Of a stretch of 64,000 nucleotides of DNA, positions 26,424-57,121 are shown in pieces. The notes under the pieces were generated by a model. It was not told the origin of the DNA. It searched no databases and worked only from the letters and a program-made list of their open reading frames with translations. A program made the translations under genes and the position numbers. How positions within the stretch are numbered: position 1 is the first letter of the stretch; every line of letters begins with the position of its first letter. The DNA comes from Clostridia bacterium (lineage in GTDB: Bacteria; Bacillota; Clostridia; Oscillospirales; CAG-272), in assembly GCA_017936565.1 (NCBI GenBank), contig JAGBFG010000043.1:25473-89472 (forward strand), written 5' to 3'.

Positions 26424-26807
26424 ATGCCAATAAGCGAGCTTACACGAGAGCAGGTCCTCTCGCTTTCCAAAAAAATGATGCATTATTTTGAAACGGCGGG
26501 ATGCGAGGGCAGCGAATTTAAGGAAGGACTCCCATCCTTTGTTCGCTTTGCACACCGCGAGGGGCTGACAGTCAAGGGCATTTTGGCACTACGGGAAAGG
26601 GACGAGGTATTTCGTGACTGTTATGCCGAATGCGAAGAAATCTTGAAGGACAGAATCACCGACGGGGCTTTATATAAAAGGTTGGATTCCTCTTTTGCGA
26701 AATTTTTGCTTGCGGCACGGTACGGATACACCGACAAGGAAGAGGGTGAGGAAGAGGGCGGCTTCTCTTTGACGGTGACTGTGAAGGAGCCAAATACTTG
26801 CTCTTAA
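26424..26807 (+). CDS. Phage terminase small subunit (putative)
   Basis: 127 aa located directly upstream of, and overlapping, terL. LPSFVRFAHREGLTVKGILALRERDEVFRDCYAECEEILKDRITDGALYKRLDSSFAKFLLAARYGY resembles HTH-type small terminases. Confidence 0.6.
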   Translation: MPISELTREQVLSLSKKMMHYFETAGCEGSEFKEGLPSFVRFAHREGLTVKGILALRERDEVFRDCYAECEEILKDRITDGALYKRLDSSFAKFLLAARYGYTDKEEGEEEGGFSLTVTVKEPNTCS

Positions 26808-29970: not shown

Positions 29971-30631
29971 AGATTTTATCAAACAATACTTAGCCAACAA
30001 AAAAATCGAGGACTATGAAGGCTGGGTCAGCCAATACGGGCAAGACACAGCAAAGACCTACAAGCAAGCCCTTGCCGATGCTGATAGCCGCTACGCCGAG
30101 GCGCAGGCAACACACGGCACAAAGGCCGCCGCCCTGCTTTCCCGCGGTATGACGGGAAGCGGATACAGCGATTATCTTTCGGGGCTTGCCTACACCGAGC
30201 GCCAGAAGGAGCGACTGACGGCAACGGAAAAGAAAAGCCAGGCGGACGCCGACAACAAAAAGAACTATGCCCTTTACACACAAGGGCTGACGGCGGAGGC
30301 GGAAAAGGCCTTTGCCGAAAAGGAAGCCCGCCTTTCTTCCGCCTTTTCCGCTCTGCTCAAACAAGAGGTAGAGACGGTTGAGGGCGCAAAAGCCTTTTTA
30401 ACAGCCAACGGTATCGAAGAGGAGCTTGCCGAGAAGATCGCGCAAGGAAGCGTGGATATCATTCGCAATTCCTCGGGCAAAAAGAAGGAAGTGCTCGAAT
30501 ACGTGTTGGGAAAATATATGCCCTACGAGTACGCCTATCAATACGCCATAGCCTGCGGGCTTTCCGAAAAGCTGGCTGAGGAGGTCGCGCGCGCCGCACA
30601 GAGCATGCGTAATTCCGTTTGGGACAGCTAA
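29954..30631 (+). CDS. Phage head-module protein of unknown function (helical, Ala/Glu/Lys-rich)
   Basis: 225 aa from ATG 29954, overlapping the portal end by 17 nt. No motif recognised. Confidence 0.45.
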   Translation: MPKKLEDFIKQYLANKKIEDYEGWVSQYGQDTAKTYKQALADADSRYAEAQATHGTKAAALLSRGMTGSGYSDYLSGLAYTERQKERLTATEKKSQADADNKKNYALYTQGLTAEAEKAFAEKEARLSSAFSALLKQEVETVEGAKAFLTANGIEEELAEKIAQGSVDIIRNSSGKKKEVLEYVLGKYMPYEYAYQYAIACGLSEKLAEEVARAAQSMRNSVWDS

Positions 30632-30649
30632 ACTTTTCATAATCAAAAG

Positions 30650-30675
30650 AAAGGAAGCCTTCGCAAGACGAGGGC
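30650..30675 (+). promoter_or_regulatory. SD-adjacent hairpin motif, copy 1
   Basis: AAAGGAA followed by GCCTTCG-caaga-CGAGGGC (7 bp including one G-U pair), then 13 nt to ATG 30689. Confidence 0.5.
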
Positions 30676-30688
30676 TACGGTCACAGCA

Positions 30689-30829
30689 ATGAAGAAACAC
30701 AACCTACCCCATAACCCCTATGCCACCAACAGCATCAACCCCATTCAAGCGCCCCACAAAGCAGAAAAAGAGCCTGCTTCCACGGTGAAGAAGGGGAATG
30801 ATTTGCGTATCAGACCCAACAGCAAATAA
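30689..30829 (+). CDS. Small basic/Pro-rich ORF (46 aa), hypothetical
   Basis: Own translation: MKKHNLPHNPYATNSINPIQAPHKAEKEPASTVKKGNDLRIRPNSK. It is below the ORF-track size cutoff, fills an otherwise empty 230-nt gap, and is preceded by the hairpin motif. Confidence 0.35.
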   Translation: MKKHNLPHNPYATNSINPIQAPHKAEKEPASTVKKGNDLRIRPNSK

Positions 30830-30862
30830 TCGCGTCAAAAAAAGCAAAGGAGAGCAAACGCA

Positions 30863-31360
30863 ATGATAGAACAAGAAAACAACCCCGTTTTGACAGAAGA
30901 AGCGCCGCCGTCACACTCCCAAGAGGAGCACACAGAAGAGCCAAGGGAACAAACGCTTGAAGACGAGCCTTCTGTTGACTCCCCCTTGGAGCAAGCACCC
31001 GAGGAGGAAGAAGCGCCTGCGGTGGATTATGCCCGTTTAGCCGAGGAAGACTTGAAGGAAATCAAATCCTTAGACAGCTCCTATGCCCATTTGCGTCATT
31101 TGGGAGAGCTTCCCAATGCCCGCCGCTTTGCTGCTTTGCGTGATTTGGGGCTTTCTGTCAAGGAGGCGCTGGCTGCCTCGCATCCCCATTTCACAAAGGA
31201 AAACGGAAAGGCGCATCTGCGCCCAAGCCTTGAAAAGGGCGCCGTTTCCCCTTTGGGTGTCCTCTCTTCCGAAGAAATGCGCCACGCGAAGGAGCTTTTT
31301 TCGGATTTGAACGATGGCGAAATACAGGCGCTTTACCGCCGCGTAAAACCAAGATATTAA
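30863..31360 (+). CDS. Scaffolding-like protein (acidic N-terminus, helical C-terminus), putative
   Basis: 165 aa with a strongly acidic N-terminal third (EEAPPSHSQEEHTEEPREQTLEDEPSVDSPLEQAPEEEEAP). Located between the portal and capsid genes. Confidence 0.45.
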   Translation: MIEQENNPVLTEEAPPSHSQEEHTEEPREQTLEDEPSVDSPLEQAPEEEEAPAVDYARLAEEDLKEIKSLDSSYAHLRHLGELPNARRFAALRDLGLSVKEALAASHPHFTKENGKAHLRPSLEKGAVSPLGVLSSEEMRHAKELFSDLNDGEIQALYRRVKPRY

Positions 31361-31384
31361 TTTTAATCAGGAAAGGATTTTTCT

Positions 31385-31798
31385 ATGCTCACACTTAAAA
31401 GAATTCTAAACCGCGCAGTCAATGTTCCCGAGCCGCAAAGACTCTCTCTTTCTGCCGAAGCGACAGTAGAGGAGGGCGCCCCCTTTGCCTTAAAGGACGG
31501 TGTTCTGACGGCTATGAAAGACAACACGGATTTCATTCCCCAATTCGTTTCTTACAGAAAGGAAGCCGCCAAAAAGACGGTTCTGGCATATCCCGTCAAC
31601 GAGGATATGGTTTTTGAAATTCCCCTCTCTGACGCTCCTGCCTCGATGATCGAGGGAAAGGAATATCTCTTGTCGGAGGACGGCTTGTCCTTAACCGCCA
31701 CCGCTGCTTCCGGCAGCTACAGAGGCGCCTTGCTTTTCGACCTTGCAGGTGCAGAACAAGCAACGGACAAGGTCCTTATTCGTTTTCCCCGCGCATAA
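31385..31798 (+). CDS. Head-module protein of unknown function (possible decoration or accessory head protein)
   Basis: 137 aa directly upstream of the capsid candidate. The call rests on position only. Confidence 0.35.
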   Translation: MLTLKRILNRAVNVPEPQRLSLSAEATVEEGAPFALKDGVLTAMKDNTDFIPQFVSYRKEAAKKTVLAYPVNEDMVFEIPLSDAPASMIEGKEYLLSEDGLSLTATAASGSYRGALLFDLAGAEQATDKVLIRFPRA

Positions 31799-31826
31799 TT
31801 AGAAACCAAGAAAGGATTTTTATACT

Positions 31827-32888
31827 ATGTCTATTATTTATTCTGAAAACAGCGGTCTTAACAATGCCGCCGTCGGAAAATTAGAAACCCCCTTAAAAAT
31901 GGTCATTGAGCACGAAAGCGATTTGCAGACCAAAAGAGGCGGTATTTGTGACTGGCTTTTCAACATTGAGCGCTCCACCAAATTCGGTGAGACGGTTGTA
32001 GGTCAAAATGAATTCGGTATTTTTGCCGCCACCGAAGAAGGCGCGGGCGCTGAAAATGACGAAATCCGCGAAACCTACCGCAAATTCATCGAGCACATCC
32101 AGTTTATGAAGGAGTTTACCATCACCGCGCAAATGATGGAGGACGCCAACTACGGCGTTGCCGCGGATGCCAAGCGCCGCGCAGAAAACTTCACCCGCGC
32201 TTACTACAAGACAATGCACAAGATTTGCGAATACGCCTTGGCAAACGGAACCGCATCCCAAGGACATTTTGCCAAAGCGGTTTTGGACTTGACCTCTCCT
32301 GACGGACTTCCCCTGTTCCATTCCGCGCACAAGTGGGGCGCGGGCGACAAGGTCGGCACGCAAAGCAACTACTTCTACGGCAATATCTTCAAGACGGGCG
32401 ATGGGGACGCAAGAGCCTATTCCACAGCCGCGTTTGAAGAAGCCTTGAACGAGCTTTCTTCCAAAATCCGCAATATGAAGGATGAAAACGGAGATATTCT
32501 CGGCTACACCGCTGACACCATTATTCTCCCCGGTAACCGCCCTGCCGCTGAGGCTGTGGCTAAAAAGGTTTGTGGGTCTGAGGGTGCTTTGGGTAACGGC
32601 TACAACGACATCAACCTGCAATGCGGTAACTGGAATATCGTGGTTATGCCCGACTGGCAGACCTCAGATGACCGCTGTATGATTATGTCCTCGGAGGCAA
32701 ACAAAAATCTTTGCGGCAATATGTTCTTTAACCGTGTGCCCTTAACCGTTTCCAACTGGGTGGACAACCATACGGGCAACTACATCTGGAATGGCAGATG
32801 CCGTTTCGGTGTTGGCTTTGGCTCTTACAAGCACATTTTGCTCGCCGTGGATTCCACATCCGCTCTTGCTGACGGAACGGCAATGTAA
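31827..32888 (+). CDS. Major capsid protein (putative)
   Basis: 353 aa with a strong RBS (GAAAGGA), located after the scaffold-like gene. Size and position fit an HK97-fold coat protein. No protease gene is nearby. Confidence 0.6.
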   Translation: MSIIYSENSGLNNAAVGKLETPLKMVIEHESDLQTKRGGICDWLFNIERSTKFGETVVGQNEFGIFAATEEGAGAENDEIRETYRKFIEHIQFMKEFTITAQMMEDANYGVAADAKRRAENFTRAYYKTMHKICEYALANGTASQGHFAKAVLDLTSPDGLPLFHSAHKWGAGDKVGTQSNYFYGNIFKTGDGDARAYSTAAFEEALNELSSKIRNMKDENGDILGYTADTIILPGNRPAAEAVAKKVCGSEGALGNGYNDINLQCGNWNIVVMPDWQTSDDRCMIMSSEANKNLCGNMFFNRVPLTVSNWVDNHTGNYIWNGRCRFGVGFGSYKHILLAVDSTSALADGTAM

Positions 32889-32908
32889 TACACCTTTAAG
32901 GAGACAGT

Positions 32909-33481
32909 ATGACAGGAAAAGAACTGATGGAGATTGTCGCCCAAATGGGCTTTGCCAAAACTCTGGACGATAATGAACCATATTTTTATCAAATGACAAG
33001 TCTTTCCCTTTTGCAAATTTCCCGCCATTTTCCATTGGTTAAAACCATCACCGTAGAGCACAAGGACGGCGCGGAGTATTACACCGAATACGACGTGGGT
33101 GCTTTGTGTGACGATTTCCGTTCTTTTCCCGAAAAGCCCTTGCGACTTGGCAGCTTGCTCTTGCAGGAGGGGCGCGACTTCCTGATTGAGGGAAGCCGCG
33201 TCCGTCTTGCTCTCGGGCACGAGGGAAATCTGGAAATCCGATATTGTCGCCGTCCTTGCAAGGTAAACGCCGATACACTCCACAAGGAATTAGACATTTC
33301 ACCCGAGGCATTGCATTTGCTCCCCTTGCTCGTATCCTCTTATCTTTGGGCAGACGAGCGGGCAGAGCTTGCCTCTCATTATCTTGCCTTGTTCCGCTCC
33401 GAGCTGAGCGAGGCAAAGAAGGAGCGTTTTGCCCATCAAATGGCAAGCTATCATTGCGGAAACGGATGGGATAAGGGATGA
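32909..33481 (+). CDS. Putative head-tail adaptor-position protein
   Basis: 190 aa with RBS AAGGAG. It lies between the capsid gene and the 978-aa protein (the position of gp4/gp11-type adaptors in P22/T7-like modules). It overlaps the next gene by 4 nt. Confidence 0.35.
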   Translation: MTGKELMEIVAQMGFAKTLDDNEPYFYQMTSLSLLQISRHFPLVKTITVEHKDGAEYYTEYDVGALCDDFRSFPEKPLRLGSLLLQEGRDFLIEGSRVRLALGHEGNLEIRYCRRPCKVNADTLHKELDISPEALHLLPLLVSSYLWADERAELASHYLALFRSELSEAKKERFAHQMASYHCGNGWDKG

Positions 33482-36414
33482 AAAACAACAGTCAAAGCAC
33501 CGTTTACGCCAGCCATCTTTCCCGCTTTCGCGGCGTTGACTTTTCCTTGGATGATATTTCTCTTTCCCCCAATCGCTTTTGCAACCTGAAAAACATGTGG
33601 AAGGATTGGCAGAGCAACGATGGGCTTGCCGTGGAAACCTTCCCCGGATACCGCCTGTTCGGCTTTTTCGGGGACAAGGTTTTCGGTATCTACTCCCAAA
33701 AAACAGGCGGGGTGGAATATTTGATTATTCACGCGGGGAACAAGCTATACCGCTTTCCCGCCGCCTTGCGCCATCAGCCAAACGCGATAAAGGACTTAGA
33801 GCCTATCTGTGCCAAGCTCCCCGCGCAAGAGGGCTGCGGCTTTCAGTCGGGCGACTTTTTATATCTGCTCACAGGCGGGCAGCTATACCGCATTGACAAC
33901 CAAGGGGCTTGTCTTAGCCTTTTAGAAGAAAATGAGCTGCCCTACGTTCCTATCGCCTTTTATAACGGCGCTCACTACGAGCAGCGCAACCTGCTGACAA
34001 ACGAGGTCAGAGAGGTTTCAACGGCGGAAAGCTTAGAAGAAAAGCAGCCCGCCGAATACGACAGCCTTGTATTTGTTCCTTTGCCTGCATCCCCCGGTTG
34101 CTGTGCCGTCAAGGCGGGAAAGCCCTCATCCCTTCCCCTCTCTCTGACTATTCCCTCTTCTGCGGAAATAGACGGGGAAACCTACACGGTAACAGGCATC
34201 GCGGGGGGCGGCTTTTGCGGCTTTTCCAACCTTTTTTCGGTGACCTTGCCCGACACCATCACGGAAATCGGAGCATACGCGTTTGCCGAGTGTATTTCAC
34301 TTACCGAGGTGCACCTTCCCTCTTCCTTGCAATACATCTGGCATCACGCCTTTTGGGGCTGTGTTCTTTTGCACACCGTTTCTTTAAATGAGGGCTTGAT
34401 TTCCGTGGGCGAGGCGGCGTTTGGGCAGGCTGAGTGCATTCGTTACGTATACTACCCCAAGGACCAAGAGTCGTATTCCGCCATCTCCTTTTTTGAAGGC
34501 TCATCTCCCTTTCCCGCCTCTGCCCAAATCTGCTTAGAGGCAGAAGCGCCCATCAGACAAAAGAAGCTTTTGCTCGCTCCCGTATACACCCCTGCCTTAC
34601 GCATCAACCGCGTGCTTTTGGGAGAAGAAGAGATTACAGCCGAAGGAAGCGCGGTATACGGCACACACGCTTCCTATACCTACCAAAAGCAAGACGGCTA
34701 TATCCAATCCGTTTGCGTCTTTGTGGCAGACGATACCGTTTTGGCGGGAAGAGCCGTTACACTTCAATTAGAAGCATCCCCCACGCAGTTCAACTCTCCC
34801 TTGGGCTTCAAGGCGTTTGGGGAAAGCGCGCAGTCCCTGTCAGGCAAGGATGCCGTCTTGGGCTGTCAAGCGGTTGGGGAATACGACGGGCGCATTTTCT
34901 TCACAGGAAACCCTAAGCTTCCCAACACCGTCTTTTTCTCTTCGCCCGATGAAACAGGCTATAACAACCCCCTTTACATAGGCAACCTCAATTATTTCAA
35001 CGATGGACTTTCTTCCGTTCCGAACCGCGCGCTTTTGGGCACGGGTGATATGCTGATGGTTATGAAGGAGGAAGGTGCGGGCAGAGGGGGCATTTTCTAT
35101 CACACCGCCGAGAGCACCTCTCATTCGTTTGCCCCCCGTATCTACCCTGCGGTATCGGGGCTTGCGGGAATGGGAACGGTATCGGGGGCGCTCAACTTCC
35201 GAGATGACCCCGTTTTTCTCACCAAAAACGGTCTTTTTGCCGTAGAGCGTCAGGCGGTCAATTTAGAACGCAGCCTTTGCCCTCGCTCCTCTAACGTGAA
35301 TTTGAAGCTGTGCCGCGAGGATTTGTCCTCTGCCAAAATGGCGGTATTTGAAGGATATCTGTGCATTTTAACCAAGGGCAATGTCTATCTTGCCGACAGC
35401 CGCGAAACCTTCCGCCACCCTAAGGGAAGCACCGAATACGAATGGTATTTTTTAACGGGTATAGGACACTATCAGGACGACAAGCCCCTGTACCGTTACG
35501 CCGAAACGCTACCCGCTTCCGCTGAAAAGGAAAGCATATTTATTTCTCCGAAAAGCGGACAAGTGGTCGAAGGCGAGGTATATTCCCTTATGGGAGAAAC
35601 GGGCGAGATGCTCTATTACGTTCAAGAAAACGGGCAGCGCTATGGCGTTGACACCGATGGCGAAAGAACGGGCGGCGTCTTTTTTCCTGCCACTACCCTG
35701 TGCGTCGGGGAGGACACCTTGTATTTTGCCACGGAAAGCGGCGCTATCGGTTGCTTTAACACAGACAAACGGGGAAAGGCTCTGTACCGCACAAAGCCAA
35801 GTCCTCTTTTTTACCAAAAGGACAGTGCCTATTTCCCTCTTGCTTCCGTTTCTGAAATACACAGCGAGGATGAGCTGCAAACGATGCCTCTCTTTGCCCT
35901 TGAAAATGGCACCTACACAGAAATGGGAACCTTCCCCGTTTACCAAAACGGCAATCTTGTTTCCCTTGCGGAAGAAATAGAAGAAGGGCGACAAGGACGC
36001 ATCCCCGCTTATTACTACACCTATGCTTTTCACCGCTTTCCATCGGGCTGCGCCACCGCTAAGGACAACGGTGGAATGCCGCATTTAAGAAAAAACACCC
36101 TGCCGGGCACCGTTGCGCTACGCTTGAAGCTATTTGCGCCCACCCATTTTTCCGTGGACGTTTCTACCGACAGAAGCCCTTGGCACAGGGTTGAGGAATG
36201 CAGAACGGACGCTGCCGATTTAAGTGACGCGGACTTCTCTGCCTTCTCCTTTGACGCGGGTAGTGCCGTCACCCTTCCTATAAGAGAAAAGGAACGGCGC
36301 TGGTGCGAAAAGCAATACGCCTTTTTTGATGAGGTTTTCCGCTCTCCCTTTGGCATTTATGGGCTGTCTTACAGCCATCAGCCCGCAGGAAAGCTGCAAG
36401 CGCCGTTCTCATAA
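33478..36414 (+). CDS. Large virion-associated protein (nozzle/tail position) with embedded BspA-type leucine-rich repeats
   Basis: 978 aa. Residues encoded at about 34140-34470 read VTLPDTITEIGAYAFAECISLTEVHLPSSLQYIWHHAFWGCVLLHTVSLNEGLISVGEAAFGQ, the LRR_5/BspA-like repeat pattern. Confidence 0.55.
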   Translation: MKNNSQSTVYASHLSRFRGVDFSLDDISLSPNRFCNLKNMWKDWQSNDGLAVETFPGYRLFGFFGDKVFGIYSQKTGGVEYLIIHAGNKLYRFPAALRHQPNAIKDLEPICAKLPAQEGCGFQSGDFLYLLTGGQLYRIDNQGACLSLLEENELPYVPIAFYNGAHYEQRNLLTNEVREVSTAESLEEKQPAEYDSLVFVPLPASPGCCAVKAGKPSSLPLSLTIPSSAEIDGETYTVTGIAGGGFCGFSNLFSVTLPDTITEIGAYAFAECISLTEVHLPSSLQYIWHHAFWGCVLLHTVSLNEGLISVGEAAFGQAECIRYVYYPKDQESYSAISFFEGSSPFPASAQICLEAEAPIRQKKLLLAPVYTPALRINRVLLGEEEITAEGSAVYGTHASYTYQKQDGYIQSVCVFVADDTVLAGRAVTLQLEASPTQFNSPLGFKAFGESAQSLSGKDAVLGCQAVGEYDGRIFFTGNPKLPNTVFFSSPDETGYNNPLYIGNLNYFNDGLSSVPNRALLGTGDMLMVMKEEGAGRGGIFYHTAESTSHSFAPRIYPAVSGLAGMGTVSGALNFRDDPVFLTKNGLFAVERQAVNLERSLCPRSSNVNLKLCREDLSSAKMAVFEGYLCILTKGNVYLADSRETFRHPKGSTEYEWYFLTGIGHYQDDKPLYRYAETLPASAEKESIFISPKSGQVVEGEVYSLMGETGEMLYYVQENGQRYGVDTDGERTGGVFFPATTLCVGEDTLYFATESGAIGCFNTDKRGKALYRTKPSPLFYQKDSAYFPLASVSEIHSEDELQTMPLFALENGTYTEMGTFPVYQNGNLVSLAEEIEEGRQGRIPAYYYTYAFHRFPSGCATAKDNGGMPHLRKNTLPGTVALRLKLFAPTHFSVDVSTDRSPWHRVEECRTDAADLSDADFSAFSFDAGSAVTLPIREKERRWCEKQYAFFDEVFRSPFGIYGLSYSHQPAGKLQAPFS

Positions 36415-36443
36415 GCGCAGCCTTATCTCTTATATTCCATCAG

Positions 36444-36469
36444 AAAGGATGCTTTTGCAAAGCGAAAGC
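36444..36469 (+). promoter_or_regulatory. SD-adjacent hairpin motif, copy 4
   Basis: AAAGGAT followed by GCTTTTGC-aaa-GCGAAAGC (8 bp, one G-U pair), then 10 nt to ATG 36480. Confidence 0.5.
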
Positions 36470-36479
36470 CATAGAATAT

Positions 36480-37559
36480 ATGATATCCAAAATTCTCAAT
36501 ACCGAAATACAAGAAAACGCGGTTTCTTCCCTGGCGAGTCGCCCCTCTTCCCCCTCTCTTTACGGTGGGAATATGCTATCCGCCAAGGAATTGCGCGCAG
36601 CCTTTGACAAGCTGCCCCTGCTTTTAGCCTCGCGCTTTAACAGCCTTTTGGATGCGCTTGGGCTTTACACGGATGAAACCACCTGCGAGCGCCTCGCGGC
36701 GCTCGTTGCCACGGAGCTTTTTGAAGGACACTCCTTGGCGGATTTGTTTGCCGACATTTCCTCAGGGCGCTTTTCCTCTTATCTTTCCATAAACGGCGAA
36801 CAGTCCTTAACTGAAATTCTTTCCCTTTGTCAAGAGGAAATAACATCTCTGGGCGAGGCAGTTGACACGCTGACACACTCTGATGAAGCCTTCTTTAAGG
36901 AGCTTCAAGAGCAAAAAAAGGCGCTTGCCGACCAAACGCAAAAGCAAGCGAATGACGACCAAGAGAGAAAAGCCGACATCTTATCCCTTGACACCAAAAC
37001 GCAAAACGCACTTTCTGCCTTGCGGAATGATGTAAAAACGACCTTCCGTATTTCTGAGCTTCCATCCGACGATTATGCCAAGGTATACCGCTTGGAATAT
37101 AAGGACGAAACAAGCTATTCGCCCGTTTTACATTCGGTAGACATCAACATTCCCAAGGATTTGGTTGTAAAGAGCGGCGAGCTTTGTTATGCCGTAAAGG
37201 ATGGCGTTCCCGTTGCCTCTTATCAAAAGGGCGAGGCATATATTGATTTGACTCTTTCCACCGCCGACAGCCAGCACATTTATATTCGTGTGGGAGATTT
37301 GGTGAAGACCACCATTTTGTATACCGAGGGCAGTGGGGATATGATAACGGAAATCACGGCTGTGGGAAATTCCTTGACGCTGCACAGGGGTCTTTCCTCT
37401 GCCACCTTTGCCAAGGCCGAAGAGGTAAAGGCTTTGCAAACGGCGCTTGCCGATATTCCCCCGCACGTCCTGACGGATGAAGCAACGGGCAAGGTCTACC
37501 GTTATTCCTTGGCTATACAAAACGGAAAGCCCGGGCTTCTTATCACCGAAAAGGTATGA
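36480..37559 (+). CDS. Fibre-like structural protein with central coiled coil (putative)
   Basis: 359 aa. It has a central heptad-rich segment (EAFFKELQEQKKALADQTQKQANDDQERKADILSLDTKTQNALSALRNDV) and a beta-rich C-terminus. It lies in the tail-fibre position. Confidence 0.45.
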   Translation: MISKILNTEIQENAVSSLASRPSSPSLYGGNMLSAKELRAAFDKLPLLLASRFNSLLDALGLYTDETTCERLAALVATELFEGHSLADLFADISSGRFSSYLSINGEQSLTEILSLCQEEITSLGEAVDTLTHSDEAFFKELQEQKKALADQTQKQANDDQERKADILSLDTKTQNALSALRNDVKTTFRISELPSDDYAKVYRLEYKDETSYSPVLHSVDINIPKDLVVKSGELCYAVKDGVPVASYQKGEAYIDLTLSTADSQHIYIRVGDLVKTTILYTEGSGDMITEITAVGNSLTLHRGLSSATFAKAEEVKALQTALADIPPHVLTDEATGKVYRYSLAIQNGKPGLLITEKV

Positions 37560-37613
37560 GTACAGTGCCTCTTTTACGTCGGCTTTACCACATTTAACAG
37601 AAAGGATTACAAA

Positions 37614-38780
37614 ATGTCAACCTTTATTAACCTTTTATCCGACAGCACCTTTGCCGAAAAGATGGACACGCAAAACGCGCTTCTATCCGTCTTGGCAAGG
37701 TCGGATACCTTCAAATTTGAATCCTGGGCACAGCTGCAAGGCTTGGTGCGCTCAGGTCTTGCCTCTAAAATACTGTCCATTGGCGACCAATTTGTTTGCC
37801 AGAAGGAAGGGGAAGCCATCGCTTGGGACGTTATCGGAATTGACTGCGAAACGATTGACGCCAACGTTTTCCGCCACTCCATTACCTTACAGCTGCACAA
37901 TCCCATCGGTTTTCTGATTCACACCTTAACACAGGCTCTGTATTATTGCGAAAAAGCCTTGCCCGCGGGCACCTATCATTTTTATCTTTACAATTATTTG
38001 ACTCCGTCCGAGTCCGATTTATCCCAGGGCGTCAACCAATACTATTCCTTCACGCTGACAAAGTCTGTTCCCGCCAAGGGGCATATTCTTTTTCCAATGG
38101 GGATAACCAGCACCGCCCTCTCCACAAAGATATCCACCTATGATAGCGTCACATCCACCGAAGCCATTGAAACGGTTTCCGTGAAGCAGGGACAGGAAGG
38201 AACGCTTTTGCCCTCCGACAAGATTGCTTGCGCGGAAAAAATACGCTACGGCTACAACTCTTATAAGAATTCCCAAATCAGAACCTTTCTGAACAGCAAC
38301 TACGCCGCAGGCAGTATTTTCAGAAAAGGAGTTACAAACTTCGAGCATTTTGCCAGCTGGCCCTTCCCGAACAACGGCTTTATGTACGGTATGGACGAAG
38401 ACTTTTTAGCGGTTCTTTACCCTGTAAAAAAGAAGACGAAAACCAATACCGTCATGTCTGACGGAAGCTACGAAGTCACCGAGGATATCTTCTTTTTACC
38501 CTCGGCAAGCGAGGTCTTTGGTACACCGATTGAGGGTGAAGAAGGAGAAGGGGCGCCTTATCCCTATTATTCCTCCTTCTGCACCTCGCCGGAGCCTCAT
38601 GACCTTCCCGACAAGGGACGCACCAAATATAAAAAGGACGGCTCCGTTGCCTCTTGGATGCTGCGTACCGCGGTTTCCGATACCGTACACTATTGCAAAA
38701 TAATTGGCGCGAAGGGCAACGTCCCAAACAACCCCGCCAGCTTCTCGGCAAACATCGCCCCTCTTTGCGTCATTGCCTGA
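37614..38780 (+). CDS. Putative receptor-binding/fibre protein with DUF6273-like C-terminal region
   Basis: 388 aa. IFFLPSASEVFG...YPYYS...SWMLRTAV...NIAPLCVIA resembles the FLLS...WWLRS...RPA pattern I recall for DUF6273. Confidence 0.45.
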   Translation: MSTFINLLSDSTFAEKMDTQNALLSVLARSDTFKFESWAQLQGLVRSGLASKILSIGDQFVCQKEGEAIAWDVIGIDCETIDANVFRHSITLQLHNPIGFLIHTLTQALYYCEKALPAGTYHFYLYNYLTPSESDLSQGVNQYYSFTLTKSVPAKGHILFPMGITSTALSTKISTYDSVTSTEAIETVSVKQGQEGTLLPSDKIACAEKIRYGYNSYKNSQIRTFLNSNYAAGSIFRKGVTNFEHFASWPFPNNGFMYGMDEDFLAVLYPVKKKTKTNTVMSDGSYEVTEDIFFLPSASEVFGTPIEGEEGEGAPYPYYSSFCTSPEPHDLPDKGRTKYKKDGSVASWMLRTAVSDTVHYCKIIGAKGNVPNNPASFSANIAPLCVIA

Positions 38781-38799
38781 ACGGCAGAAAGGAAATTTT

Positions 38800-38958
38800 A
38801 TGTTTATTTATAAAAACATTCACCAAGCCTTGCAGGAGGAACGGCAAAAAAGCGCCGCTCTTTTAGCAAGACAAAAGCAAATACAAGCCGACATGGATTA
38901 TATCGCTATGATGACCGATGTTTCTCTTGACGGGGAGGAAAGCTATGACGAAATTTGA
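38800..38958 (+). CDS. Small phage protein (52 aa), hypothetical
   Basis: MFIYKNIHQALQEERQKSAALLARQKQIQADMDYIAMMTDVSLDGEESYDEI. ATG 38800 follows AAAGGAAA, and the gene overlaps XkdX by 14 nt. Confidence 0.4.
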   Translation: MFIYKNIHQALQEERQKSAALLARQKQIQADMDYIAMMTDVSLDGEESYDEI

Positions 38959-39085
38959 AAAAATCCGCGCCTATTATCTGGCGGGGCTTTGGTCTTACGG
39001 ACGTTTGAAGGACGCCGTATTAAAAAAATGGCTCACGCAAGAAGAGATGGAAAGCCTCGTCAAGGAAAAGGAAGCGATGCAATGA
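38945..39085 (+). CDS. XkdX-family phage protein
   Basis: Own translation (46 aa, below the track cutoff): MTKFEKIRAYYLAGLWSYGRLKDAVLKKWLTQEEMESLVKEKEAMQ. The IRxYYxxGLW...V.KxWLTxEE pattern matches XkdX, and there is an ATGA overlap with the next gene. Confidence 0.6.
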   Translation: MTKFEKIRAYYLAGLWSYGRLKDAVLKKWLTQEEMESLVKEKEAMQ

Positions 39086-39465
39086 AAATAGAAATATTGG
39101 ACGGCTTTGCCTTTTTCGCCGAGCAAAAGGAAAAAAAGGGGGCTTTCTATCTGACTCTTCCTAAGGAAGCCAAGGTGTTTCTGAACGGGCGAGCACTCGC
39201 GAACGAGCCCTTGCGCTTTTACCGCCTCTTCCCCACCGATTTAAGAGAAGGGGAAAACACCCTATCCCTTTACATAGAGGGTGCAAGCATTCCCTGTCAA
39301 GGACTTTTGCGCCATAACGAGCAAGTGACCCCCTTTGCCTTTCCGACGGAAAAGCTCCTGCTTGCCCTGCTTCACCGCCAAATAGACCAAGAAAAGCGGC
39401 AAAAGAAGCTCGAAGATGCACATCAAGCCTTGCAAAAGGAGATGCGCGGCGCCACCTTGTTTTAA
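39082..39465 (+). CDS. Phage protein of unknown function (127 aa)
   Basis: MKIEILDGFAFFAEQKEKKGAFYLTLPKEAKVFLNGRALANEPL.... Translationally coupled to XkdX, with a helical basic C-terminus. Confidence 0.5.
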   Translation: MKIEILDGFAFFAEQKEKKGAFYLTLPKEAKVFLNGRALANEPLRFYRLFPTDLREGENTLSLYIEGASIPCQGLLRHNEQVTPFAFPTEKLLLALLHRQIDQEKRQKKLEDAHQALQKEMRGATLF

Positions 39466-39536
39466 GGGAAAAACAAAAAGATATCTTTTTCTTCCCTTCT
39501 CTGTTTTCTTTGGGCACAGATGCCCGTAATATCAAG

Positions 39537-39562
39537 AAAGGAAGCCTTCGCGATGCGAATGC
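39537..39562 (+). promoter_or_regulatory. SD-adjacent hairpin motif, copy 2
   Basis: AAAGGAA followed by GCCTTCGC-gat-GCGAATGC (8 positions, one C-T mismatch), then 13 nt to ATG 39576. Confidence 0.5.
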
Positions 39563-39575
39563 TACGGTTATATAT

Positions 39576-40199
39576 ATGAAACGAATATTATGCTTGCTGT
39601 TTTTGTTATCCCTCATCCTTGGCGCTTTGTGTCTGACGGTGAACGCGCAAGAGCCGCCCTTGCCTGCATCAGAGGAGCAAGAGCCTCTTGCCGAATCAGC
39701 CACCGCCACCACCGAGGAAAAAAGGGTTTTTACCAACGCCATTGGTGACTTTCTACGCGAAAACGCCGAAAAAATCTTTTGTGCCTTGGCGTGTATTGCC
39801 TCGCTGATTCCCGGTTTTCTCTATAAAACAGGGCTTTTGCCCTTGCTTCGCTCCGCCCTCTCTGCCCTCTCGGACAGCGCCAACAAGGCTGGCAAAAAGA
39901 CGGAAGAATTTTCCGCCAATGCCGAAGAAAAATTGGCGTCATTACAGCAAGGAGCTTCGGCGGTTTTACAGGTTTCGGAGAATACCGTTGCCCTTTTACA
40001 GGAAGCCGAAGAGCGCTTAGCCGCATTAGAGGAAGCCTTGGCGCAAAACTTGAAGGAAAAGCAAAAAACCACCGCCGCCTTACAAACGGAAACGGAGCTT
40101 TTGTTCCGTATGCTTCAATGCGCCAATCTGCCGCAAGCCCAGAAGGATGCGATGTCTTCAAGCTTCTTTGCTCTGCAACAAACCTTAAAAGAAGAATAA
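39576..40199 (+). CDS. Signal-peptide-bearing single-pass membrane protein with cytoplasmic coiled coil, unknown function
   Basis: MKRILCLLFLLSLILGALCLTVNA|QE (signal-peptide-like), an acidic linker, a TM helix (IFCALACIASLIPGFLY), then a heptad-rich Ala/Glu/Leu tail. Confidence 0.55.
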   Translation: MKRILCLLFLLSLILGALCLTVNAQEPPLPASEEQEPLAESATATTEEKRVFTNAIGDFLRENAEKIFCALACIASLIPGFLYKTGLLPLLRSALSALSDSANKAGKKTEEFSANAEEKLASLQQGASAVLQVSENTVALLQEAEERLAALEEALAQNLKEKQKTTAALQTETELLFRMLQCANLPQAQKDAMSSSFFALQQTLKEE

Positions 40200-40242
40200 C
40201 GCCAAGAGGCAGCTTTTCTCTTTGGCGGAAGAAAGGATTTTT

Positions 40243-40584
40243 ATGGTCATTTTTTTTCGCATAGCAGGCTTTGCTCTTTGCACCCTTCCTGCTGTCATTT
40301 CATCCCTTGAACATTTCCCCCTTTGGCTTTCCGACAGAGCAAGCACCCTTTCTATTTTCGGACTCTTGGTCTTGCTTTTGGCGGTATTGCCCTTTTGGAA
40401 AGCCATAAAGCATTGGCTGAAAAGCCCGTCTGCTTGGATGCTTTGGTTTTTACTTTGGCTTTTTCTGTCGCTGTTCCGCCAAATCATTGACGGGCTGATT
40501 GCCGTATCCTTTGTGGCGTTTCCGTTCAGTATGCTTGGCGCGCTTTGCTTCTATTTGGCAAAACGGTACCAAAATCGAAAATAA
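40243..40584 (+). CDS. Small 4-TM membrane protein, unknown function (holin-position)
   Basis: 113 aa from ATG 40243 (RBS GAAAGGA) with four hydrophobic helices and a basic C-terminus (KRYQNRK). Confidence 0.5.
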   Translation: MVIFFRIAGFALCTLPAVISSLEHFPLWLSDRASTLSIFGLLVLLLAVLPFWKAIKHWLKSPSAWMLWFLLWLFLSLFRQIIDGLIAVSFVAFPFSMLGALCFYLAKRYQNRK

Positions 40585-40589
40585 AAGCA

Positions 40590-40633
40590 GGGCGCAAGAA
40601 GGAGAGCTGCCTTTTCCCTTGCGCCTGTTTTTT
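40590..40633 (+). terminator. Terminator-like hairpin between the two membrane-protein genes
   Basis: GGCGCAAG (40591-40598) pairs with CTTGCGCC (40618-40625), followed by TGTTTTTT. The loop is long, about 19 nt. Confidence 0.45.
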
Positions 40634-40646
40634 ATGAATCTGCAAA

Positions 40647-40672
40647 AAAGGAAGCCTTTGCGGTGCAAAGGC
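40647..40672 (+). promoter_or_regulatory. SD-adjacent hairpin motif, copy 3
   Basis: AAAGGAA followed by GCCTTTGC-ggt-GCAAAGGC (perfect 8 bp), then 11 nt to ATG 40684. Confidence 0.5.
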
Positions 40673-40683
40673 GTGGTTTTAAT

Positions 40684-41610
40684 ATGTCATCTTTTTTCCC
40701 CGAATCCGTTCAAGACGGCAAAAGCAATCTCAAAAGCGTGCTTTCTCATTTGGGTGTTCTCTCTGCCACCGTCACGCTTCTTGCCGTCTCCGCCTTGTTT
40801 TTTACCGATATTTCTCTTTTCTTCCAAGCATCCTTGGAATTTTCCCTGCATTTTCTTTTGCTTCTCTTCGCTTCCTACGTGATGTATTTTTCTTTGAGCG
40901 AAACGGGAGCTGAGCAGGCGAAAAAGGAGAAAGAATATGAGCTTGTCTTACAAAGAACCAATAAAAACCGTCTTCGCTTTCGGGAAGAGGGGACAATGGC
41001 TTCATTAAGCGCGTTTTGTGACAGCGTCAGCGAAAGAGAAACCCAAAACAAACGCAAAGCGCTTCTTTCCGCCTTTTGCCTTACCGAAGAGGACTTGGGT
41101 GCCTACGGTCCTTCCAATCCCCCCGCCGCCCTTTCCTCTCTGCAAAAAAGGGGTTTACGGAAGGTCGCGCGCATGCGCGCTGTTCGCATCACCCCGCCTA
41201 TGCTCCTGTTTACAAGAGAAGGGGGCGGATACACCGCCCCCTTGGCAAACGCCCCCGCCGTTTCTAAAATACGGCGCTTTCTGCCCTATTTATTCGCTTC
41301 TGCCTTCACCGCTTTTTTCTCAGTTTCGGTTATTTGCCAAATCATTTTCGAGCCAAGCCCTGCTTTGCTCTTGGGATACTTTTGCAAAATCTTCACCCTG
41401 GTCTTTAACGGTATCAAGGGATACAGAGCAGGCTATTGCAATATCAGCAAGGATACCGTTTCGTATCTTTCCGAGCAAAACGACCTGCTTGACGAGTATT
41501 TCAAGGACTTTTTGCCCTTCTTTTCGCCAAAAGCAAATGAGCCTGTGACGGATTTTATAGCGCAGGGCACCGAAGACGGAGCAGAATATAAAGAACAGTT
41601 GTCATTATAA
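40684..41610 (+). CDS. Membrane protein (2 N-terminal plus 2 C-terminal TM helices around a ~130-aa soluble domain), unknown function
   Basis: 308 aa from ATG 40684. The in-frame GTG 40663 lies inside the hairpin. It converges on the SDR gene and overlaps it by 6 nt. Confidence 0.5.
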   Translation: MSSFFPESVQDGKSNLKSVLSHLGVLSATVTLLAVSALFFTDISLFFQASLEFSLHFLLLLFASYVMYFSLSETGAEQAKKEKEYELVLQRTNKNRLRFREEGTMASLSAFCDSVSERETQNKRKALLSAFCLTEEDLGAYGPSNPPAALSSLQKRGLRKVARMRAVRITPPMLLFTREGGGYTAPLANAPAVSKIRRFLPYLFASAFTAFFSVSVICQIIFEPSPALLLGYFCKIFTLVFNGIKGYRAGYCNISKDTVSYLSEQNDLLDEYFKDFLPFFSPKANEPVTDFIAQGTEDGAEYKEQLSL

Positions 41611-42369
41611 TACCGTTTTCAACCAGAGCCAAGTCAAGAGACGGTCAGGCAACAGCTTGAACATCATATGCTGCAATTTTGTATACCAGTTTGTCACCGC
41701 CAGCAATTTTCCCCGTCTTGCGCGGGAAAGACCGTAGGCAACTACCCGTTTTGCCTTTAACAGGGGCTTGGGGTTTTTGGGATAAAGTGCCCCGGGTGTC
41801 GTTTGCGCGTTTTCCAAGAACTCCGTTTCCACCCAACCGGGACAAAAGCAGGTGACGGATATGCCCAAGGGCTTCACCTCTGCCCGAAGACCCTTGGCGT
41901 AATGTAGCACAAACGCCTTGGATGCGGCATATACGTTAAAATGGGGCAGGGGCGTGAAGCAAGATCCTGAGCCGATTTCTATAATATGCCCGCCCTTCTC
42001 CATATAAGGAATGGTGGCGTGCGTGATGAGAACGGTTGCCTTGCTGTTCAAATCTATCATACGGGAAACGTCCGTTTCGCTTATGTGCGCATAGTCGCCG
42101 AATTTGCCAAAGCCCGCCCCATTGACAAGGTAAACCACCTGCAAGCGATGCTCCTTCAAATAATCGGCATAGACCCTTACCGACTCTTCCTCACACAAGT
42201 CCAAGGGGAGAATATCCGCCTCTTTTAGCTCCTCTGCCAATTCCTCTAACCGCTCGCGGCGTCGGGCAATCAAAAGAAAATGATCCGCCTCGCCCCTTTG
42301 CTTGATCTGACGTGCAAACTCCCGCCCGATGCCCGAGGACGCTCCTGTAATAATGGCTGTTCTTTTCAT
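41605..42369 (-). CDS. Short-chain dehydrogenase/reductase (SDR) family oxidoreductase
   Basis: TAIITGASSGIGREFA (TGxxxGxG), NGAG, and YAASKAFVLHYAKGL (YxxxK). Confidence 0.85.
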   Translation of the reverse strand: MKRTAIITGASSGIGREFARQIKQRGEADHFLLIARRRERLEELAEELKEADILPLDLCEEESVRVYADYLKEHRLQVVYLVNGAGFGKFGDYAHISETDVSRMIDLNSKATVLITHATIPYMEKGGHIIEIGSGSCFTPLPHFNVYAASKAFVLHYAKGLRAEVKPLGISVTCFCPGWVETEFLENAQTTPGALYPKNPKPLLKAKRVVAYGLSRARRGKLLAVTNWYTKLQHMMFKLLPDRLLTWLWLKTVL

Positions 42370-43273: not shown

Positions 43274-43307
43274 GTTACTTGACAAGCAACAAAAAGTGTG
43301 ATATAGT
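43274..43307 (+). promoter_or_regulatory. Rightward sigma-A-type promoter overlapped by operator-like palindrome O2 (GTTAC-N7-GCAAC)
   Basis: TTGACA (43279-43284), 17-nt spacer, TGa-TATAGT (43299-43307). GTTAC (43274-43278)/GCAAC (43286-43290) brackets the -35 element. Confidence 0.5.
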
Positions 43308-49289: not shown

Positions 49290-50669
49290 TCACGACTCAA
49301 ACGCCTTCGCCACTTCTACGTAAATGGCGCACTCCATACGCTTGCGGAACAGCTCGCACCCGGGCTCATACACGCCCAAAACGCTGCCGGTTGCGTGATA
49401 GGCGTTGGCGGCGCAGCCGCCCGAGCAATAAAGCTTTGCCCAGCAATTTTTACATTCCTCGTGGGCATAGACGTTGCATTGCTTAAATTCGTTCTGCCTT
49501 GCGGTATTTTGCACCCCATCGTACACGTTGCCAAGCTTGAAGGATTCATCTCCCACAAACTGATGGCAAGGGTAAAGGTCCCCCCAAGGCGTCACCGCCA
49601 TATATTCCGTTCCCGAGCCGCAGCCCGAAATGCGTTTATAGATACAAGGGCCGCCCGTCAGGTCTATCATATAATGGTAGAACGTAAAGGGTCTTCCCTC
49701 TTTACGACGCGCAAGCATCAGATCCGCCAATTCCTCATACTGCTTTTTCACCAGAACAATATCCTCATCCGTCAAGGCAGAAGGGTCATTGGGCGCGCAC
49801 ACAACGGGCTCCATACTAAGCTCGGTAAAGCCAAGGTCAAGCATTTGCTTGATATCCTCTAAAAAATCGGGGTTTGCGTGGGTAAACGTGCCGCGCATAT
49901 AGTAGCCTTTACCGCCGCGCGCCTCGACAAAGCGCTGAAACTTCGGCACGATTTTTTCCCAGCTACCCTTGCCTGAAAAGTCAACGCGAAATCTGTCGTG
50001 CACTTCTTTTCTGCCGTCAAGGCTCAACACCACGTTGCTCATTTCACGGTTGGAAAATTCGATGACCTCGTCATCGATCAGCATACCGTTCGTGGTCAGG
50101 GTGAAACGAAACTCCTTGCCCGTTTCCTTTTCCCGTTCTCTGGCATACGCCACCAAGCGCTTCACCACGTCCCAGTTCATCAGGGGCTCGCCCCCGAAGA
50201 AATCCACCTCTAAATGACGGCGCGTTCCTGAATTCTCAATTAAAAAATCCAGCGCCCGCTTGCCTGTTTCATAAGACATCAAGCCTCTCTCTCCGCTATA
50301 TCTGCCTTGACTTGCAAAGCAATACGAGCAGTTCAAGTTGCAGGTATGCGCCACGTGAAGACACAGCGCCTTCACCACATTAGAGGTTTTTTCTTTCAGC
50401 TTGTTTGCCATAGGCTTGAAAGTGTCCTCTGCAAAAAGCCTGCCCGTCTTTTCCAAAGCGGCAACCTCACCGTAGCATTCCGCCACGTCTTTTTCCTCAA
50501 TGCCCTTGCTCTCTTTATATTTTTCGGTCAGGATAGAGATAACTTCCTCTTTGCTGTGCGTCTTGAAAAGGGCGATGATGTCGTATGCCACCTCGTCCAC
50601 AACGTGAATGGCGCCTGAAAACACATCAATAACGATGTTATATCCGCCCTGCTTATACTGATGTACCAT
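49290..50669 (-). CDS. scfB: Radical SAM/SPASM thioether-forming SCIFF peptide maturase
   Basis: CNLNCSYCF (CxxxCxxC) and C-terminal SPASM cysteines (CGSGTEYMAVTPWGDLYPCHQF...CKNCWAKLYCSGGCAANA). It lies immediately downstream of a SCIFF peptide gene. Confidence 0.9.
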   Translation of the reverse strand: MVHQYKQGGYNIVIDVFSGAIHVVDEVAYDIIALFKTHSKEEVISILTEKYKESKGIEEKDVAECYGEVAALEKTGRLFAEDTFKPMANKLKEKTSNVVKALCLHVAHTCNLNCSYCFASQGRYSGERGLMSYETGKRALDFLIENSGTRRHLEVDFFGGEPLMNWDVVKRLVAYAREREKETGKEFRFTLTTNGMLIDDEVIEFSNREMSNVVLSLDGRKEVHDRFRVDFSGKGSWEKIVPKFQRFVEARGGKGYYMRGTFTHANPDFLEDIKQMLDLGFTELSMEPVVCAPNDPSALTDEDIVLVKKQYEELADLMLARRKEGRPFTFYHYMIDLTGGPCIYKRISGCGSGTEYMAVTPWGDLYPCHQFVGDESFKLGNVYDGVQNTARQNEFKQCNVYAHEECKNCWAKLYCSGGCAANAYHATGSVLGVYEPGCELFRKRMECAIYVEVAKAFES

Positions 50670-50770
50670 ATGTATGACCTGTCCTTCGCGCCAGCGAAGG
50701 CTCCCTTTCTTCTTGGGTTTTTGCTCCTACTGTGCAAAAGCGCCACCATAATGGCGGCGCTTTTGTCTAA

Positions 50771-57105: not shown

Positions 57106-57121
57106 ATTAAAGTAATTTTAA

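Follow-up and report, generated by a model that had tools for sequence, protein, structure and literature searches.

Start regions with a hairpin in a phage-like cluster and a host operon

The window analyzed here, a 64,000-nucleotide (nt) stretch of contig JAGBFG010000043.1 of a Clostridia bacterium, contains five genes in which a short stem-loop lies between the Shine-Dalgarno sequence (SD) and the start codon. Four of them belong to a phage-like cluster on the plus strand (26424-41610), which encodes a small and a large terminase, a portal, a major capsid protein, an adaptor-like protein, a 978-aa BspA-LRR protein, a DUF6273 fibre-like protein, an XkdX-like protein and several unknown proteins. 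This cluster is syntenic in at least 80 species-level metagenome-assembled genomes of Eubacteriales/Oscillospiraceae from animal and human guts (123 tblastn hits). The fifth gene is a host gene with the Pfam domains Radical_SAM/SPASM, whose homologues are named SCIFF peptide maturase. Between its operon and the phage-like cluster lie an SDR gene, a LexA-like repressor and ileS.

The first four copies had been described in a sequence-only reading of the window and were found at the coordinates given there. The ATGs behind them match the N-termini of orthologues in dozens of related loci and are therefore true starts; the 46-aa open reading frame behind copy 1 is conserved with 40-65% identity across related loci. 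The same reading had restricted the hairpin to the phage-like cluster, with no copy outside 30.6-40.7 kb. This was contradicted by a fifth copy on the minus strand (50708-50667) before the host SCIFF maturase gene. The parts of the five copies are as follows.

30649..30691, plus strand: start region of copy 1, before the 46-aa gene 30689-30829 (g46), ATG 30689
30649-30656, plus strand: SD of copy 1, GAAAGGAA, with AAAGGA at 30650-30655
30657-30675, plus strand: stem-loop of copy 1, GCCTTCG-caaga-CGAGGGC, 7 bp including one U·G, with an optional closing pair A30656-T30676
30679-30680, plus strand: GG in the 3' part of copy 1, preceded by TAC and followed by 8 nt and ATG 30689
36443..36482, plus strand: start region of copy 4, before g359 (36480-37559), ATG 36480
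36443-36449, plus strand: SD of copy 4, GAAAGGA (AAAGGA at 36444-36449), followed by T
36451-36469, plus strand: stem-loop of copy 4, GCTTTTGC-aaa-GCGAAAGC, 8 bp including one U·G, with 10 nt to the ATG
39536..39578, plus strand: start region of copy 2, before g207 (39576-40199) encoding a signal-peptide protein, ATG 39576
39536-39543, plus strand: SD of copy 2, GAAAGGAA, with AAAGGA at 39537-39542
39544-39562, plus strand: stem-loop of copy 2, GCCTTCGC-gat-GCGAATGC, with a mismatch C39546·T39560 (C·U in the RNA)
39566-39567, plus strand: GG in the 3' part of copy 2, preceded by TAC and followed by 8 nt and ATG 39576
40646..40686, plus strand: start region of copy 3, before g308 (40684-41610) encoding a membrane protein, ATG 40684
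40646-40653, plus strand: SD of copy 3, AAAAGGAA, with AAAGGA at 40647-40652
40654-40672, plus strand: stem-loop of copy 3, GCCTTTGC-ggt-GCAAAGGC, a perfect 8 bp
40675-40676, plus strand: GG in the 3' part of copy 3, preceded by GT and followed by 7 nt and ATG 40684
50667..50709, minus strand: start region of copy 5, before the host SCIFF radical-SAM maturase gene 50669-49290, ATG 50669
50709-50702, minus strand: SD of copy 5, GAAAGGGA, with AAAGGGA at 50708-50702
50700-50683, minus strand: stem-loop of copy 5, CCTTCGC-tggc-GCGAAGG, 7 bp, with G50701·A50682 unpaired
50679-50678, minus strand: GG in the 3' part of copy 5, preceded by CA and followed by 8 nt and ATG 50669

Copies 1 to 4 share one layout, consisting of (G)AAAGGA, a single base (A/T), a stem of 7-8 bp with a loop of 3-5 nt, and 10-13 nt before the ATG. 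The top pair of copy 1 is C·A, which leaves a 7-bp stem with a 5-nt loop. The consensus of the family is GCCUUYGC, a 3-5 nt loop and GCRAAGGC, then 2-3 nt, usually followed by GG. All five copies are sense-oriented to the downstream gene and are located 0-1 nt 3' of the SD and 10-13 nt 5' of the start codon.

According to 22 ordinary start regions of the window, the usual ribosome-binding site (RBS) of this genome is GAAAGGA followed by 5-12 nt (median ~8), which agrees with the earlier observation that AAAGGA serves as RBS elsewhere in the genome. In all five copies the linear distance from GGA to ATG is 30-33 nt. The hairpin takes up 18-21 nt of the SD-AUG interval, and 11-14 nt are left without the stem-loop.

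Each of the five genes follows a gap and is not translationally coupled to the preceding gene. The gaps measure 57 and 65 nt before copies 1 and 4, which lie inside an operon without an upstream terminator, and ~100 nt before copies 2, 3 and 5, where terminator-like hairpins were found.

39464..39509, plus strand: weak A/T-rich hairpin with a T-rich tail, after the g127 stop codon (39463-39465) and upstream of copy 2; not called by the terminator scan
40588..40633, plus strand: terminator-like hairpin, CAGGGCGCAAG...CTTGCGCCTG then T6, which closes the g207-g113 unit and leaves 13 nt to the SD of copy 3
50736..50760, minus strand: hairpin GCGCCGCCAttatGGTGGCGC then TTTT, behind the SCIFF peptide gene (50917-50771), upstream of copy 5

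The last of these separates the precursor gene from the maturase gene as an attenuator or terminator, and an equivalent hairpin is also present in the orthologous operons of L334-L338.

A discrete family with conserved stems

The 15-mer AAAGGAAGCCTTCGC occurs in the window twice exactly and twice with one mismatch. With up to three mismatches it gives 14 matches compared with 4.4 expected, a number reached by none of 100 shuffles. A covariance model (R1) was built from nine members with 8 pairs. It scores the window copies at 42.6 bits (copy 1), 45.1 bits (copy 2), 42.1 bits (copy 3), 41 bits (copy 4) and 37.8 bits (copy 5), while the next best match reaches 19.8 bits, so that the copies form a discrete family. 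Rfam gave no match at the hairpins, neither at the gathering threshold nor at E <= 10, its sole family in the window being the FMN riboswitch.

According to RNAfold, the hairpin is the minimum-energy or centroid structure of each of the five start regions, with -8.5 to -13 kcal/mol (copy 1, -12 to -13 kcal/mol; copy 2, -8.5 kcal/mol) and with SD and AUG unpaired. RNAalifold predicts the same eight pairs on the nine-member alignment. The claim that pairing is kept through compensatory changes was borne out for most positions, since 95.8% of the paired cells in the nine members hold a pair and both sides are changed in three of eight pairs (C-G to U-A, U-A to C-G). It does not extend to the C·U mismatch of copy 2 and the C·A top pair of copy 1. 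Only one of 500 column shuffles was as good as the real alignment, and slid-partner controls pair at 34-50%. The four wobbles all read 5'U·3'G in the sense direction; antisense, they would become C·A mismatches. Their direction is modest evidence for constraint on the sense strand.

Furthermore, the AAAGG of the SD is invariant in nine of nine members, and the stems are conserved in sequence (GCCTTYGC), whereas the loops are free in sequence and length (3-6 nt). Binding of a translational or phage late-gene regulator here, which the sequence-only reading had proposed, is disfavored by the variable loops next to conserved stems, by the variable spacing of the arms and by the host genes that carry the motif.

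Filled and empty sites in related loci

For comparison, ~90 related loci (L001-L092) were used, of which L001-L003 are the closest relatives, whose capsid is 88% identical and which have the same host genes upstream. No hairpin is present at the g46, g207 and g308 junctions of any related locus, L001-L003 included; an ordinary SD is followed there by 4-9 nt and ATG. The g46 start region consists of GAAAGGAA, 6-8 nt and ATG in L001-L006 and ~40 other loci, for example AAAAGAAAGGAA-ACCGTT-ATG in L004. The empty g308 site reads AGGAGG-TT(T/C)T-ATG in L001-L003 (TAGGAGG-TTTT-ATG in L002). Orthologues of the SCIFF maturase gene (78-81% identity) show a terminator hairpin and then an ordinary SD, 5-7 nt and ATG, as in L334 (AGAAAGG-TACAGCT-ATG).

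The g359 site is the only one that is filled in relatives, and only in L001-L003, where AAAGGAG is followed by a hairpin of 9-11 bp, 8-10 nt and ATG. Between the window and these three loci the g359 hairpin shows C-G to U-A double changes, and at this junction 54 of 64 classified loci have no strong hairpin. By parsimony, the g359 copy is older and the other four copies were added in the lineage of the window. As the relatives have a plain SD and ATG at four of the five sites, the stem-loops were added secondarily at the boundary between SD and spacer.

Copy 1 has the same 5' flank, AAAAGAAAGGAA, as the empty sites of L004 and L006, so the SD is native and the insert begins right after it. When ~22 nt are removed from copies 1, 2, 3 and 5, GAAAGGA is joined directly to GGT, with 7-8 nt to the ATG, which makes a perfect RBS. 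The GG after the hairpin, which also belongs to the part common to the copies found elsewhere (see below), may be the 3' half of a split SD, the end of an element or a 2-bp flanking repeat. Among the related loci none lies between 88% and ~100% identity of the major capsid protein, so that the boundaries of the insert are approximate. Same-strain assemblies have no single nucleotide polymorphism in any hairpin.

A different hairpin was observed at the g978/g359 junction of L004 (~14570-14610), L013 (~7640-7680) and L019 (~14560-14600), where an A-tract is followed by a strong perfect hairpin and a normal SD. Its 5' arm begins with GAGG and pairs with CCTC, and its energy is -16 to -22 kcal/mol. 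Read antisense, this junction is a good intrinsic terminator consisting of a hairpin and a T-run.

Members of the family outside the window

The window was extended by 14 kb past its ends using same-strain assemblies, and the covariance model found no further copy there. Thus, five copies are present in ~78 kb of genome, four in the phage-like cluster and one before a host gene. In 1.5 Mb of related loci, the sole matches of the model are the g359 sites of L001-L003.

A metagenome scan was performed with the pattern AAAGGAAGCCNNNGCN{3,5}GCNNNGGC; it is not a census. Among the matches listed, 19 of 82 have complementary middle triplets and one is a clear family member (L251), which reads GGAGAAAGGAA-GCCTTTGC-ttg-GCGGAGGC-9 nt-ATG and lies before a PHP-family gene. 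The rest of the matches listed are mostly chance GC-rich coding DNA and ordinary bidirectional terminators. In IMG/VR the hairpin alone gave 80 matches, all unrelated and mostly coding for Ala-Phe-Ala, none of them with an upstream AAAGGA, and the SD-inclusive pattern gave one match, in coding DNA, and no family member.

In the runs X5, X7 and X10, three or four other loci were found with at least 85% identity to copy 1, 2 or 3 over 33-36 nt and with unrelated flanks. Three of these show an ATG 5-12 nt past the matched part, which ends in ...GTGGTTT, ...GCGTGG and ...CTACGG and continues with TAAACATCATG, GATAATTTTATG and GGACACATATG, respectively. In the fourth, a copy-2-like contig of X5, the 3' flank is unreadable. 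In other gut metagenomes, too, members of the family lie in front of unrelated genes. X1 and X2, the metagenome runs of this genome, gave only the cross-match between copy 1 and copy 2 and no further copy of at least ~85% identity, by a contig matching that detects only elements ~80-85% alike without gaps and that missed the link of copies 3 and 5 to copies 1 and 2. Therefore, the element is not a high-copy, near-identical repeat.

These data bear on the origin of the copies. They could go back to a mobile or copy-paste palindrome of ~23-24 nt, made up of the hairpin and a 3' tail ending in GG, which is REP- or MITE-like, inserts after the GG(A/AA) of an SD and persists where it can fold. This origin is compatible with a hairpin looped out of the RBS, as it addresses where the copies come from and not how they act. 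It would account for four genes whose sites are filled in the lineage of the window and empty in relatives, and for copies of at least 85% identity at non-orthologous loci, before unrelated genes and in other metagenomes. The flank of copy 1, with an insert right after the native SD, and the ~22-nt deletion that restores the RBS in four copies fit as well, and conserved stems with free loops are the pattern of REP sequences. In addition, a generic search for SD, hairpin and ATG with any stem in the 1.5 Mb yielded this hairpin family and noise only, which favors common descent over convergence. Against it stands the low number of copies (five in ~78 kb, and in the own runs none beyond the cross-match mentioned above). 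They have a single orientation to the gene, and none was found at 3' or other intergenic positions. The annotated 78 kb contain no transposase gene, there is no clear target-site duplication (the flanking GG...GG is suggestive only), the loops differ wholly between copies, so that the copies are not recent, and no member appeared in the IMG/VR scans. A mobile origin is thus possible, with odds of perhaps one in four.

Promoter, terminator and operator explanations

The sequence-only reading had noted a -10-like hexamer 5-8 nt upstream of each of copies 1 to 4 (CATAAT, TAATAT, TATGAA, TATATT) and had considered the hairpin as a stabilizer at the 5' end of transcripts. In such a case the transcript would begin at the hexamer, and the hairpin together with the ribosome-bound SD would protect it from 5'-to-3' decay, like the Bacillus STAB-SD. 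Stabilization of Firmicutes mRNA by a 5'-proximal SD or stem-loop is known from the cryIIIA STAB-SD and the aprE leader. Moreover, copies 2 and 3 lie behind terminator-like hairpins, so that a new promoter or read-through would be needed there. The A/T-rich hexamers, however, have no fitting -35 partner, and the promoter scan made no sigma-70-type call at the four sites; upstream of copy 3 the stem of the terminator-like hairpin (40588..40633) leaves no room for a -35. No such hexamer exists at copy 5 or at the orthologous copies of L001-L003. Copies 1 and 4, with their gaps of 57-65 nt, are within an operon without a terminator, and the hairpin is located 3' of the SD and not at the extreme 5' end. 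The hexamers are thus not supported as promoters, and a stabilizing 5' end is very improbable.

Another explanation starts from the opposite strand, where each copy reads as a GC-rich hairpin and then the SD's pyrimidine complement, TTCCTTTCTTTT. The copies would then be antisense terminators that block transcription running into the cluster from convergent host genes. Copy 3 and, weakly, copy 2 were flagged as terminator-like on the minus strand, copy 3 reading there as a hairpin plus TTCCTTTTTT. The SDR gene converges on g308 without an intervening terminator, and the g978/g359 junctions of L004, L013 and L019 carry the good antisense terminators described above. On the antisense strand, though, the four sense U·G wobbles turn into C·A mismatches, and C residues break up the U-tracts. 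At copy 5 there is no convergent transcription that could be stopped, and the orientation always follows the downstream gene at a fixed position relative to the ATG. Such a role can be given hardly any weight.

A third explanation takes the purine-rich 3' arm of the stem as the true SD. It would be sequestered by the anti-SD-like 5' arm (CCUUC), with AAAGGA as a standby site, and opened by temperature, a helicase, a protein or a small RNA. The 3' arms read GAAGG, AAAGG, GAGGG or GGAGG, 9-14 nt before the AUG, and are thus SD-like; in L001-L003 and L251 the GG is 9-11 nt from the start, which is near-canonical. The 3' arm plus spacer of L003, GAAGGCGACGAACTATG, aligns with the real SD of L013 and L004, GAAAGGAGAACTATG. 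Energies of -8.5 to -13 kcal/mol are within the range of switchable hairpins, and the genes follow gaps or terminators and need de novo initiation. What speaks against a regulated operator is that the 3' arms of copy 2 (GAATG) and copy 4 (GAAAG) have no GG core, whereas AAAGG upstream does not vary, and that copies 1, 3 and 5 have long distances of 12-14 nt. A protein that reads the loop is unlikely since neither loop sequence nor loop length is conserved, and the variable spacing excludes a dimeric DNA-binding protein with fixed spacing. Finally, the genes share no common function, as they encode small phage, fibre-module, secreted and membrane proteins, the SCIFF maturase and a PHP phosphoesterase. 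Regulation of this kind seems improbable, roughly at the level of one chance in eight.

Known standby sites and SD-sequestering hairpins (MS2 coat gene, tisB, RNA thermometers) as well as STAB-SD elements and 5' stem-loop stabilizers of Bacillus mRNAs resemble the present one in an unpaired SD-like tract beside a stable hairpin and in an SD-like 3' arm. They differ in that the functional SD or the AUG is inside the structure or, in STAB-SD elements, the SD is far from the start codon, whereas here a strong SD is free and the 3' arm is not consistently SD-like.

Four further candidates were tried and discarded. A LexA/Cheo box or another dimeric operator is out because the spacer varies in length and the sequence is unlike GAAC-N4-GTTC. 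A stem of only 7-8 bp rules out an RNase III site. An N4-type hairpin promoter was rejected because a virion RNA polymerase is absent and host genes carry the motif as well, and a pac site because of the large distance between the copies and terS and because one copy is at a host gene.

A proposed split ribosome-binding site with a looped-out stem-loop

Taken together, the hairpin family is neither a promoter element nor phage-specific. The explanation that fits best is a lineage-specific family of stem-loops that is looped out of a split RBS of the T4 gene 25/38 type, to which we assign a probability of about 0.5. The element would act in the mRNA. Folding of the stem-loop would remove 18-21 of the 30-33 nt, leaving 11-14 nt, so that the upstream SD could still position the 30S subunit. 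As an unfolded insert of ~20 nt would break the RBS, purifying selection would keep the stem paired. For genes that have to start translation de novo behind a gap or terminator, the net effect would probably be permissive or a mild down-tuning. Given an insertion at this place, selection to keep the gene translated would be enough to explain the compensatory changes without a regulatory role, and covariation is therefore not by itself a sign of such a role here.

Work on the split RBS of T4 genes 38 and 25 is reportedly that of Nivinskas et al. in 1999 and of Malys and Nivinskas in 2009. In T4 gene 25 the hairpin brings the spacing down from 27 to 11 nt and in gene 38 from 22 to 5 nt, and mutations which destabilize the stem lower translation (PMC3014915). 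Like these, the window copies have an SD that is linearly too far from the AUG (30-33 nt, against 22 and 27 nt in T4) and a stable hairpin by which a working distance is regained (5 and 11 nt in T4; the 11-14 nt of the window copies are at the long end of the range). They also share a late origin within the clade, with relatives lacking the arrangement. Of the comparison with gene 38 made earlier, the spacing, the free invariant SD and the pairing in sense orientation thus suggest a best fit, with the reservation that 11-14 nt exceeds the usual 5-12 nt. In contrast to the single, gene-specific structures of T4, an E. coli system, one sequence family is found here in a Firmicute at five or more unrelated genes, phage-like genes and a host gene among them, and also in other genomes, and the hairpin begins 0-1 nt after the SD.

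Several points weigh against a looped-out hairpin. The spacing left by it (11-14 nt, counted from GGA) is longer than the usual 5-12 nt with its median of ~8. The GG(T) located 7-8 nt before the ATG in copies 1, 2, 3 and 5 could itself be the working SD core. The fold of copy 2 is weak (-8.5 kcal/mol, z-score -0.1), and the covariation is based on nine related sequences with four double-change cells. None of the public RNA runs contains the locus. Moreover, the model fails to explain that the stem sequence is conserved beyond pairing, that every copy landed at an SD and that all five copies lie within 20 kb. As to a second SD, no AGGA or GGAG was found within 4-13 nt of the ATG in the five copies. 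Cofolding with a generic 16S tail pairs this tail with both halves around the hairpin, with a gain of only ~1 kcal/mol.

The looped-out hairpin leaves the spread of the copies unaccounted for. This could be covered by a wider proposal, in which a ~23-nt palindrome spreads to the SD/spacer boundary, either by insertion after the GG of the SD or by copying of start-region cassettes, and survives by folding out. It would leave AAAGGA, the stem-loop and GGU, with both halves complementary to the 16S rRNA tail, and would represent a class of selfish or regulatory repeats retuning phage and host translation. We regard this as speculative, with somewhat less credence than the mobile origin alone.

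Comparison with known start-associated and repetitive elements

Short repeats at start codons have been described in Cluster K mycobacteriophages as start-associated sequences (SAS) and their extended form (ESAS). SAS is a 13-bp asymmetric motif, GGGATAGGAGCCC, located 3-7 bp before start codons, and ESAS repeats lie upstream of it; SAS is phage-restricted and absent from the host, and there is little support for an RNA hairpin (PMC3203893). The likeness to the present family consists in a short repeat that contains or abuts the SD, stands upstream of some start codons in one orientation, has a function thought to be translational and carries an inverted-repeat extension in some copies. Here, however, the hairpin is downstream of the SD, shows covariation and is also found at a host gene, and both sequence and geometry differ, so that the family is not a member of SAS/ESAS.

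REP, BIME and MITE elements number in the tens to hundreds, stand in both orientations and lie mostly between convergent genes or on the 3' side of genes; they are linked to RAYT or other transposases. They resemble the family described here as short GC-rich palindromes with conserved stems and variable loops, with copies at non-orthologous places and with presence or absence that differs between genomes. The copy number here is low, the position is strictly in the start region and always sense, and no transposase was seen in the 78 kb. The sequence-only reading had named a REP-like repeat without positional link to start codons as the outcome that would speak against it. Instead, all members found show such a link, with the five window copies and L251 in sense orientation 9-13 nt from the ATG.

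If the hairpins are looped out, the window provides a multi-copy natural example from a Firmicute of a split RBS known mainly from two T4 genes. The same genes with and without the insert in relatives would serve as built-in comparisons, and it would become apparent how much structure a Gram-positive ribosome tolerates between SD and AUG. If the copies spread by targeted insertion, the start region would be an unusual niche for a small repeat. The family also calls for caution in the interpretation of covariation, as compensatory changes can reflect that an insertion is kept harmless rather than regulation. In practice, hairpin-split RBSs mislead gene callers, with one conserved gene omitted and another mis-started.

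Gene calls and neighboring features

The public gene calls of the identical strain (L093) omit the conserved 46-aa gene 30689-30829. They start g207 at TTG 39510, reading through the hairpin, and g113 at TTG 40222, while ATG 40243 has a canonical upstream SD.

The phage-like cluster may be a small prophage, a satellite or an element like a gene transfer agent or PBSX. Across the relatives its capsid protein is 68-88% identical and the neighbors are 25-60% identical; no integrase or replication genes were seen, and the flanking genes differ except in L001-L003. In L015, L016 and L025, terS-terL-portal is located downstream of g113, a circular permutation that implies a unit of ~15-16 kb. No cultured phage is more than 27% identical. 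In X5 and X7, which belong to another study (P2), pieces of the cluster (window 29900-41700) are present at 99% identity or more, and both runs contain a contig joint from 41661 to 38804 with a 31-nt filler. No contig of these two runs covers the 61-nt stretch of the SCIFF site; their coverage is low, and nothing firm can be said on cluster transfer between hosts.

At the end of the cluster, g308 (plus strand) and the SDR gene (minus strand) converge with a 6-nt overlap at 41605-41610 and no terminator between them. A LexA/CI-like S24 repressor is encoded at 43118-42447 (minus strand), and a strong divergent promoter, TTGACA-17-TATAGT, lies at 43279-43307 (plus strand) before small open reading frames.

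The SCIFF operon is complete (50975-47941, minus strand) and comprises a TTGACT-17-TATAAT promoter, a gene for a 48-aa peptide with six cysteines, the attenuator, the maturase gene and a gene for a PLP-dependent decarboxylase (49293-47941). Its gene order is the same in L334-L338.

Finally, the FMN riboswitch is located at 56989-57107 on the minus strand (102 bits), upstream of an ECF-transporter-type gene (56914-56291).

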